DNA of 64,000 nucleotides from Capsulimonadaceae bacterium. Lineage in GTDB: Bacteria; Armatimonadota; Armatimonadia; Armatimonadales; Capsulimonadaceae. Within the stretch, counting starts at the first letter, position 1; the number at the start of each line of letters is the position of its first letter. The translations under genes were made by a program, and so were the position numbers. The notes beneath the pieces were generated by a model. It searched no databases and was not told the DNA's origin. It worked only from the letters and a program-made list of their open reading frames with translations. The stretch lies in the NCBI GenBank assembly GCA_965277095.1, contig OZ255718.1, positions 3,295,594 to 3,359,593 on the forward strand, written 5' to 3'. Below are positions 41,499 through 42,036 of this stretch, in pieces.

Positions 41499-41576
41499 CG
41501 CTGGATAAGGCTTGAATTGGCACGGGAGCAAGAGAGGAAAAAACGCAGATTTGGCGTATAATAAGCTGGAATGTGG

Positions 41577-41698
41577 ATAGACGGAAGTTTCGGGCAAAAA
41601 GCGCGCTGTTCGAACGATAGGTGGAAGTTTGGCAGGAAAAAGCGGGCTGTTCGAGGAATAGGCGGAAGTTAAGTCGGAAAACTTCCGCATTTCGTACT
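41577..41698 (+). repeat. three tandem ~40-nt repeats
   Basis: ATAG(A/G)(C/T)GGAAGTTT.GG(G)CA(GG)AAAAAGCG(C/G)GCTGTTCGA x2 plus a diverged third unit; related to GAAGTTGGCAAAAAGCGG of family C. Confidence 0.6.
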
Positions 41699-41778
41699 AT
41701 TGGCAAGTTTTTGGGATAGATGGAAGATCGCGCAATTCCATCTACTCATATGTTAGACCGCACGCTTGCTAGGCATTG

Positions 41779-41787
41779 TGGTATAAT
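41779..41787 (+). promoter_or_regulatory. consensus extended -10 (TGgTATAAT)
   Basis: ATTGTGGTATAATATC; no good -35; 20 nt after orphan R' core. Confidence 0.4.
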
Positions 41788-41863
41788 ATCGTAAGCCTCA
41801 ACAAAGGCAAATTGAGAGTAGTATCTGTCGTAGTGAGGGGTGCTTTTTTGTCAAAACAAACTC

Positions 41864-41898
41864 TTAATCGGTGTCCTTTCTGTTAATCGGTGTCCTTT
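41864..41898 (+). repeat. tandem direct repeat TTAATCGGTGTCCTTT x2 (19-nt period)
   Basis: 41864-41879 and 41883-41898 identical. Confidence 0.8.
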
Positions 41899-42036
41899 GG
41901 AGCTTGCTTGTTGGTGAATGGTTTGGCGCTTTCGCATCCGGTTTAGCCGCAGCGGGTTCGGTTGGCTTACCGCTCGCGTGACAGGTTTTTGCCAAAACGA
42001 ACTCGTGGGCGTTTTCCGGCAGTCGGAAGGCGTTCG

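Follow-up and report, generated by a model that had tools for sequence, protein, structure and literature searches.

Evidence for Two Fused Gene-Less Cassettes, the First a Stump with Iteron-Like Repeats, in a Large Chromosomal Integron Array

Introduction

What becomes of an integron cassette that has lost the site by which it moves? The question is raised by a 538-nt interval, apparently without a gene, at positions 41499-42036 of a 64-kb stretch of genomic DNA from a Capsulimonadaceae bacterium (GenBank assembly GCA_965277095.1, contig OZ255718.1). We analyzed the whole stretch and refer to it as the window. Its whole length is taken up by one array of integron cassettes, whose 124 attC sites are each ~100 nt long and all on the + strand, and the interval lies inside this array, bounded by the sites that we number attC80 and attC81. 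A preliminary description of the interval had pictured it as a cassette with a lost attC fused to a second cassette, and had listed repeats, hairpins, and promoter-like motifs in the two parts. The overall explanation at which we arrive, and in which we have moderate confidence, is a fused, protein-less double cassette that would have originated by deletion, with a possible promoter role for its second part and, in its first part, what may be the leftover control region of a gene now gone. Features are on the + strand unless stated otherwise.

A cassette start inside the interval

The cassette bodies between the attC sites of the array are 167-1978 nt long and amount to ~51 kb. A Pfam scan of the 84 cassette open reading frames (ORFs) of at least 70 aa found BrnT, HicA, PemK, ParE, and PIN toxins, ankyrin and TPR proteins, and IS5 and IS4 transposases; judged by these family matches, the content is that usual for a sedentary chromosomal integron. 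About 39 of the 123 cassette bodies have no ORF of this length. Clustering at 50% coverage groups many of these gene-less cassettes into families A (n=21, ~172 nt), B (n=6), and C (n=3, ~245 nt).

How can cassette boundaries be recognized in such an array? An integron cassette takes its first six bases (TTRRRY) along when it moves, and their partner, R'', stands at its far end. Here 114 of 122 cassettes have an R' 7-mer (5' core, GTTRRRY) that equals the reverse complement of the next R'' exactly, and the perfect pairing between cassette start and cassette end mostly runs over 7-13 nt. The interval is one of only eight exceptions. Its nominal R' core, GTTAGGC at 41492-41498, belongs to attC80 (41400-41498), and the fused cassette formally starts at T41493; this core faces GTCTAAC, the R'' of attC81 (42037-42137). 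Among the eight exceptions, the interval alone has the correct partner, GTTAGAC at 41752, inside its own body.

This internal core, GTTAGACCGC at 41752-41761, is present in 28 copies in the window, of which 27 stand at attC ends and the one at 41752 is the only one elsewhere. It pairs at 14 of 15 positions with 42030-42044 (TGTTAGACCGCACGC vs GCGTTCGGTCTAACA), a length as in ordinary cassettes, whereas the nominal core at 41492 has a mismatch within the 7-mer and no extended pairing with the attC81 side. The preliminary description had already named the 41752 core, and not the nominal GTTAGGC, as the exact partner of the R'' at 42037; we find the same, and with a single copy of 28 lying off the attC ends the match goes well beyond chance. 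Because of this pairing with the end of the interval, 41753-42137 is a complete cassette, B, and 41493-41752 is the 5' part of another cassette, A. The two are joined at the orphan core (G|TT), with which cassette B truly begins, and attC81 is the sole attC of the fused unit. In what follows, part A is the 5' stump of cassette A, lacking its 3' part and attC (41499-41751), and part B is the gene-less body of cassette B (41753-42036).

Both sides of the junction fit this reading. Part A opens with TTAGGCCGCTGGATAAGGCTTG, which is a normal cassette start and fits the leader CGCTGG..AAGGCT(T/G)G. At its other end, the 12 nt preceding 41752, read directly, show no resemblance to the 3' end of an attC; the attC of A was therefore removed completely, by what would be a deletion stopping within 0-1 nt of G|TT. 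No attC or attC half-site was detected within 41499-42036 at up to 3-4 mismatches, in a search for the R''-L''...L'-R' arrangement with the conserved blocks of this array, AACAATGCGCTGCAC and GTCGCAGGTGAGCT. A hidden, degenerate attC in part A was a candidate in this search and was not found. The earlier statement that no standard attC separates attC80 from attC81 can thus be extended to partial attC fragments. Taken together, the 114/122 rule, the lone internal core, and the lack of any attC trace give good support to the central reading of the preliminary description: the interval represents two cassettes, fused through loss of the attC of the first, and 41752 is the true start of the second.

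Fusions of this kind have precedents. Cassettes fused by total loss of an attC and subsequently excised as a single unit have been documented by Fonseca and Vicente (PMC4670013), whose blaGES-1/aacA4 pair likewise consists of two cassette-derived segments with no functional attC between them and one attC on either side. By this analogy, excision and transcription as one unit would be expected here as well. The differences are that both partners in the interval are protein-less, that the first has lost its whole 3' part together with its attC, and that the array around them is chromosomal and has more than 120 cassettes, where the published pair belongs to a class 1 resistance integron.

How might the attC have been lost? 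In its original form, cassette A would have begun at T41493 and ended in its own attC, with GCCTAAC as the R''. We infer that a deletion took the 3' part and the attC of A, with its endpoint exactly at the integrase crossover point, G|TT, before B. Recchia and Hall reportedly described integrase recombination at secondary sites (GNT/GTTRRRY) in 1995. Recombination at GNT/GTT secondary sites is documented (Souque et al., PMC10127599), and the most likely route would be an integrase reaction between the attC of A and such a site inside A (...CATATG|TT...). As in the documented reactions, the junction coincides exactly with the G|TT that opens a canonical cassette, and the sequence across from it is unrelated; here the event is deduced from its product, and it counts against the integrase route that an ordinary, non-integrase deletion ending within 1-2 nt of the crossover point would look the same. 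The opposite order of events, in which B inserted at a secondary site within a larger A, is rejected: cassette 81 makes a complete cassette, with 10 nt of pairing between its two ends, and so no right-hand remnant of A follows attC81.

If this account is right, A and B are now locked together and would be mobile only jointly, as a ~639-bp unit with attC80 and attC81 at its limits. The locus would then be a clean natural example of scarring in a chromosomal integron, in which a deletion at the crossover point removes an attC and couples two cassettes permanently. Such scars can be read directly from sequence because R' and R'' covary along the array.

Several other places in the array touch on the same boundary rules. 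The seven remaining cassettes with mismatched R' and R'' (1289-1483, 9483-11460, 12945-13116, 28160-29117, 39328-39806, 58782-59079, and 59454-59621) have no internal orphan core. In the cassette at 9483-11460, no attC separates two ORFs, one for an ankyrin protein of 401 aa and one for a protein of 226 aa; this cassette may be another fusion or may simply have two genes. Many cassettes have a loosely conserved 5' leader, CGC(T/A)GG..(A/G)AAGGCT(T/G)G, after the R' core (e.g., 9476-9510, 28153-28185, 41492-41520, and 44488-44520), and the complementarity between the start of a cassette and its far end often spans 12-13 nt, exceeding the canonical 7-mer. The attC at 44401-44494 has the R' TTTAGGC instead of GTTAGGC, i.e., its crossover G is mutated, and judging from this change it may be crippled for recombination. 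At 37530-37543, GTCGCAGGTGAGAA is a near match to the conserved 3' half of attC and lies outside any attC, possibly as a relic of another lost site.

A cluster of repeated sites on the stump of cassette A

Neither a fused cassette nor a gene-less promoter cassette is a new kind of element; what is unusual here is the cluster of repeated sites on the surviving stump. Part A is unique within the window, purine-rich (62% A+G), and 47% GC, with no AT-rich stretch. A core, ATAGRYGGAAG(T/A)T, occurs in it four times, at 41577, 41617, 41658, and 41716, with spacings of 40, 41, and 58 nt (consensus of the 13-nt site, ATAGRYGGAAGTT). There is no match to this core elsewhere in the window, on either strand (128 kb) and with one mismatch allowed. 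Ten of the 13 core positions are invariant across the four copies, and the two central positions that vary are always R-Y.

The four copies are of two kinds. Copy 1 (ATAGACGGAAGTT, 41577-41589) lies in a 40-nt unit (41576-41615), and copy 2 (ATAGGTGGAAGTT, 41617-41629) lies in a 41-nt unit (41616-41656) that includes the 17-mer ATAGGTGGAAGTTTGGC. Copies 3 (ATAGGCGGAAGTT, 41658-41688) and 4 (ATAGATGGAAGAT, 41716-41744) each form the left arm of a perfect inverted repeat, and their flanks cannot be aligned with those of copies 1 and 2. The first inverted repeat, GCGGAAGTT-N9-AACTTCCGC at 41662-41688, has a folding energy of -14.9 kcal/mol (z -3.9), and the second, TAGATGGAA-N10-TTCCATCTA at 41717-41744, one of -14.5 kcal/mol (z -3.9). 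The whole window contains only four perfect inverted repeats of 9 bp or more, these two among them. A degenerate extra copy of the repeat, TTTGGCGTA-TA-ATAAGCTGGAA, stands upstream at 41549-41570. The structure of part A is clearly non-random.

Some details of the preliminary description change with these results. It had counted three tandem repeats of ~40 nt (41577-41698); the repeats are real and include four cores, and only two units are good copies (78% identical over 40 nt), the third being degenerate, in line with the 2.1 copies at a 41-nt period reported by TRF. Both of the hairpins that it listed exist and are perfect over 9 bp, with loops one base longer than the N8 and N9 given there. 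The TATAAT that it noted at 41557-41562, within the degenerate extra copy, is likewise present and not above chance: it is one of 35 in the window and has neither a -35 element nor the TG of an extended -10. Neither sequence reading nor a promoter scan revealed a convincing promoter overlapping the inverted repeats of part A, and a sigma-54 promoter in the GGCAAAAAGCG segments was rejected on reading, the GG-GC spacing being inconsistent between copies. A sequence resembling a DnaA box, CTATCCACA (8/9), overlaps core copy 1 on the minus strand (41572-41580), and the 12 such matches in the window put it at chance level. Part A has no ORF with homologues; a protein search with its 85-aa minus-strand ORF gave no match.

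What could such a cluster have been for? The likeliest single reading of part A, which the site pattern leads us to hold tentatively, is that of a protein-binding control region of the lost gene. The stump would be what is left of the control region of cassette A's gene, with four or five 13-nt sites, two of them direct copies and two perfect palindromes, in a layout reminiscent of the iterons and operator inverted repeats that precede autoregulated genes of the Rep_3 or another winged-helix type. After the loss of its gene, the stump would probably be inert, or at most act as a titration site.

The iteron parallel and its weight

The comparison with Rep_3 systems (RepE, RepA, and pi-type) rests on an arrangement common to both: direct repeats of a core are followed by inverted repeats of part of the same core in the same orientation. 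The nearest example in sequence came from a metagenome scan for three phased cores, which returned a single contig, L023 (Ga0316610_1002186, 1-4632). This small, AT-rich, plasmid-like contig has six perfect 22-bp iterons, ATAGGTGGAAGTTTGGCGTACC, followed by an inverted repeat of the half-iteron, GTGGAA-N14-TTCCAC, over a TTGACA/TATAAG promoter and then by a Rep_3 gene, whose predicted initiator has WH1 and WH2 domains (E ~1e-16). L023 makes a textbook case of an iteron replicon; its host is uncultured. The 17-mer of copy 2, ATAGGTGGAAGTTTGGC, is identical to its iteron, and 41549-41570 is collinear with its iteron junction, TTTGGCGTA-CC-ATAGGTGGAA (alignment score, 25 vs 9.3 +/- 1.4 for shuffles). 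The contig also carries an ORF that, on reading, has a PemK/MazF-like look.

A scan of viral contigs for the core added two more. One of them (L041; IMGVR_UViG_3300001598_001891, 8246-8334) has four iterons of 22 bp, ATAGACGGAAGTTTGGGTACAG, with a 557-aa ORF on one side and a Toprim-DnaB primase-helicase on the other, and the core of part A is identical to this iteron over a 14-mer plus GGG. The 557-aa protein has no Pfam or PHROG match and may, from its position, be an undescribed initiator; it was also compared with the L023 Rep, to which it is not detectably related. The other (L037) has a related 24-bp repeat at the contig end. Since the same core makes up true iterons in two replication modules, one on a metagenomic plasmid and one of a phage or plasmid, the term iteron-like used in the preliminary description is a fair one, with some outside support.

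It is tempting to carry the parallel further, and several considerations weigh against doing so, and with it against the control-region reading that leans on it. The outside matches were selected by searching for the core itself, which makes the parallel weaker than it looks, and because they were found in this way only the additional matching positions are independent: ~5 positions in copy 2, ~3 in the upstream segment, and TGG among the outside iterons. The spacings in part A are 40, 41, and 58 bp instead of 22, no AT-rich region accompanies them, and the DnaA-like box is at chance level. A Rep_3 origin would show at least three direct repeats of 17-22 bp in helical register, an adjacent cognate rep gene, inverted repeats of a partial iteron over the rep promoter, a DnaA box, and an AT-rich unwinding region; part A has four cores, of which two are clean direct copies, its 58-bp spacing is out of register, neither the gene nor the unwinding region adjoins it, and the whole array sits inside the stump of an integron cassette. 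No replication, partition, or regulatory gene able to use the repeats is present in the window: there is no Rep family among the 25 listed of the 36 Pfam families matched by the 84 cassette ORFs, a tblastn search of the window with the L023 Rep returned nothing, and no other obvious partner gene was seen. Finally, the similarity of units 1 and 2 extends over all 40 nt, a pattern that a recent duplication would leave.

Genome data add a further caution. A scan of genomes for paired cores gave 22 loci. Most of these are tandem repeats of an ordinary sort, chromosomal and intergenic, whose periods are 22-44 nt and in which the core occurs by chance; none is an integron. In two of them, cyanobacterial (L006 and L012), the direct copies run into a hairpin built from that core, with no replicon nearby, and for this reason slippage at a hairpin arm offers a neutral route to the same layout. 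A third (L020), at 3014-3068 of a contig (CABSMC010000109.1) from an Adlercreutzia metagenome-assembled genome, is a tandem repeat with a 41-bp unit, located upstream of a ribosomal protein operon, rplC-rplD-rplW. The unit agrees with unit 1 of part A at 25 of 32 positions and has the same period; it offers no functional clue, and the likeness may be a coincidence.

No homologue of part A or part B was found in the collections that we searched. A blastn search of plasmids and phages with the interval gave nothing relevant, and scans of viral contigs for this attC type, and for a family C box together with attC, gave nothing. An exact look-up of both neighboring proteins yielded no record, and the neighboring cassette protein has no relative besides the window's own gene in the protein collection; nor were relatives of the source genome detected in the collections. 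Conservation of the interval, an intact cassette A, and the lost gene were thus seen nowhere, which counts against the overall explanation.

The main rival is neutral debris, in which both parts of the interval would be decaying DNA that has no function. The repeats of part A would have arisen by replication slippage around a hairpin, with tandem duplication of one stem arm, and the second hairpin by local duplication and inversion; the promoter-like hexamers would be there by chance, and the interval would neither bind a protein nor give a product. We consider this rather unlikely, yet several of the results given above would suit it: the likeness of units 1 and 2 over their whole length, the presence of a second recent duplication, of 19 nt, nearby, the cyanobacterial repeats with the same direct copies and terminal hairpin, the counts of TATAAT and TGNTATAAT near expectation, and the failure to find homologues. 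Because the stump is not excisable on its own, it could also persist without selection. What neutral decay explains poorly is that the core has kept 10 of 13 positions in four copies while copies 3 and 4 have lost their flanks, with differences concentrated in the two central R-Y positions. Both palindromes, moreover, are perfect (9/9) and account for half of those in the window, the core equals genuine iterons in two replication modules, and useless cassettes are easily lost from integrons (PMC11014356).

A working iteron decoy is a long shot. Here part A would be kept because its sites titrate or handcuff the initiator of an invading iteron-type plasmid or phage like L023 or L041, in the manner of incA of P1 or of extra iterons, which would give the host a gene-less incompatibility or defense cassette. 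Alternatively, and with as little probability, the stump might be a vestige of a cassette that had its own Rep and Rep_3 origin and could replicate as an excised circle. The identities to the two outside iterons and the collinear upstream segment would fit a decoy, as would the order of elements, which is that of L023 as far as the half-site inverted repeat (there followed by the rep gene). Spacings of ~4 helical turns, too, exist in real iteron arrays; a real Rep_3 plasmid has spacings of 22, 33, and 44 bp. However, chance matches to a chosen core are expected among millions of tandem repeats, and L023 (~30% GC, by reading) and L041 (41% GC) come from unrelated organisms of lower GC, the proteins next to their iterons being not detectably related. 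No iterons like those of L023 occur in the 72,556 plasmids of PLSDB, in which relatives of its Rep are ~30% identical and have different iterons. Nor is there a rep gene in the window, and part A has only 2 to 4 sites, two of them palindromic.

Similarly improbable is a regulatory RNA, either a ~190-nt GGA-rich sponge of the CsrA/RsmA type transcribed through part A from the TATAAT at 41557 or a ~55-nt small RNA in part B running from the extended -10 to a hairpin with a U-run (41820-41849): part A is the stretch of the window richest in GGA, with 13 in 254 nt against 3.1 expected (a number reached by 0.04% of window stretches of equal length), one of them in the 9-nt loop of the first hairpin, and the fold z scores are -2.7 (41565-41760) and -2.4 (41794-41852), but most of the GGA are placed in stems by the predicted fold and are a simple consequence of the GGAAG core being repeated, Rfam gave no match at gathering thresholds and only two chance-level ones at E up to 10, no intrinsic terminator was called, the -10 at 41557 lacks a -35 and a TG, the hairpin of part B is not conserved in family C, and no homologues are at hand to give covariation support. 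A CsrB/RsmZ-type sponge, which the GGA content recalls, would expose many GGA in loops and would have a dedicated promoter, an intrinsic terminator, and a match to the family model; the Rfam, terminator, and stem results speak against it.

Should the repeat cluster prove to bind an initiator or a regulator, integrons would store cis-acting DNA sites and not only genes, which would be a new functional class of cassette.

Part B, a relative of family C and a candidate promoter cassette

In local alignments with the three members of the gene-less family C (12333-12570, 36520-36764, and 44148-44400), part B scores 18.5-21 against 10.3 +/- 1.5 for shuffles (z ~6). The shared features are a similar start (GCTTGCT.GGC.TTGT.G), two boxes, and a related 3' end. 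Box 1, GTGCTTTTTTGTCAAAACAAAC at 41840-41861, has 77% identity over 39 nt to 36616-36654, and box 2 is GGTTTTTGCCAAAACGAAC at 41984-42002, so the two boxes reported in the second part of the interval are both there. They are 143 nt apart in part B vs ~63 nt in family C, and a 19-nt tandem duplication makes up part of the extra length. This duplication (CTCTTAATCGGTGTCCTTT at 41861-41879 followed by CTGTTAATCGGTGTCCTTT at 41880-41898), also noted earlier, is 18/19 identical. Part B joins no family in clustering at 50% coverage and, on the alignments, is clearly related to family C as a diverged member or distant relative. The same alignment does not extend to part A, which scores 9-12.5 (shuffles, ~10 +/- 1.5). 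The homology to a family C segment that the preliminary description had seen in the 40-nt unit of part A amounts to a shared 11-mer and GAAGTT, which is the level of chance, and we dropped it.

Does part B encode anything? The longest + strand ORF wholly inside the interval has 36 aa, and the minus-strand ORFs of the interval, one of 198 bp (65 aa) and one of 258 bp (85 aa) that extends into attC80, have no homologues. A small hydrophobic peptide (36 aa, 41871-41981) was considered and rejected: it had one marginal phmmer match in 1.84 billion representatives, and the 19-nt duplication, whose length is not a multiple of 3, breaks its reading frame. A 131-aa ORF of part B that reads through attC81 has no relatives in a protein search. 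By these criteria part B appears to have no credible gene.

If part B is active at all, it would most likely be as a promoter cassette. An extended -10, TGGTATAAT at 41779-41787, predicts a transcription start at ~41794 and sense transcription through attC81 into cassette 81. The first gene downstream, and the one most likely to profit from such a promoter, is that of cassette 81, which encodes a predicted 72-aa membrane protein (42183-42401) and has a good Shine-Dalgarno sequence, AGGAAAG, 7 nt before its ATG. Tansirichaiya et al. are said to have found gene-less promoter cassettes in Treponema. In Vibrio, experiments have shown that gene-less cassettes act as sense promoters and that transcription is not terminated at attC sites (Blanco et al. 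2024; PMC11014356). The authors of that work count a cassette as gene-less when it has no annotated gene and no ORF of more than 210 bp with conserved homologues. Part B resembles these cassettes in having no ORF with homologues and an internal sense sigma-70-type motif facing the downstream cassettes, in an array where gene-less cassettes are likewise abundant. It differs from them in that its motif is an extended -10 with no -35, in its host, and in its attC sites of ~100 nt. Extended -10-like motifs recur in the gene-less cassettes of this array, as is seen from TGCTATTAT, conserved in 16 of the 21 copies of family A at the same internal position, ~80 nt from the start. By analogy with the Vibrio cassettes and their non-terminating attC sites, and with the family A motif, the promoter reading of part B is a reasonable one.

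Against this stands the quality of the motif itself. What the preliminary description called a perfect extended -10 and a consensus promoter is present as a motif and is not above chance, with three copies of TGNTATAAT in the window vs ~1.7 expected (an estimate from base composition). It has no -35, and a consensus scanner that requires one called no + strand promoter in the interval. An imperfect hairpin (AGTATCTGTC/GAGGGGTGCT) with a T-run at 41820-41861, 25-55 nt downstream of the predicted start, merges into box 1 and is weakly terminator-like; a terminator scan made no call on it. In addition, promoter calls made in silico do not predict activity in gene-less cassettes (Blanco et al., PMC11014356). 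These points temper the promoter reading of part B and the overall explanation alike. In a wider view, a large share of the cassettes in big arrays is protein-less (~39/123 here), and some of them have promoter-like motifs that could wake silent cassettes downstream.

Other features of the array

Family A is the most frequent of the gene-less families in the window. Its copies, among them 2082-2255, 12671-12842, 43237-43408, and 59180-59351, are always flanked by GTTAGAT...ATCTAAC, and from their conserved motif they are candidate promoter cassettes repeated throughout the array.

The array also contains transposase genes. Two identical genes of the IS5 family lie in opposite orientation at 45785-46606 (minus strand) and 51305-52126 (+ strand), a pair that could invert or delete the ~5 kb between its copies; the encoded transposase has ~71% identity to copies from Xanthomonas, Ralstonia, and Burkholderia, a likeness that, taken by itself, would make a beta- or gammaproteobacterium the probable host. 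A gene for an IS4-like DDE transposase lies at 61778-62773 on the minus strand.

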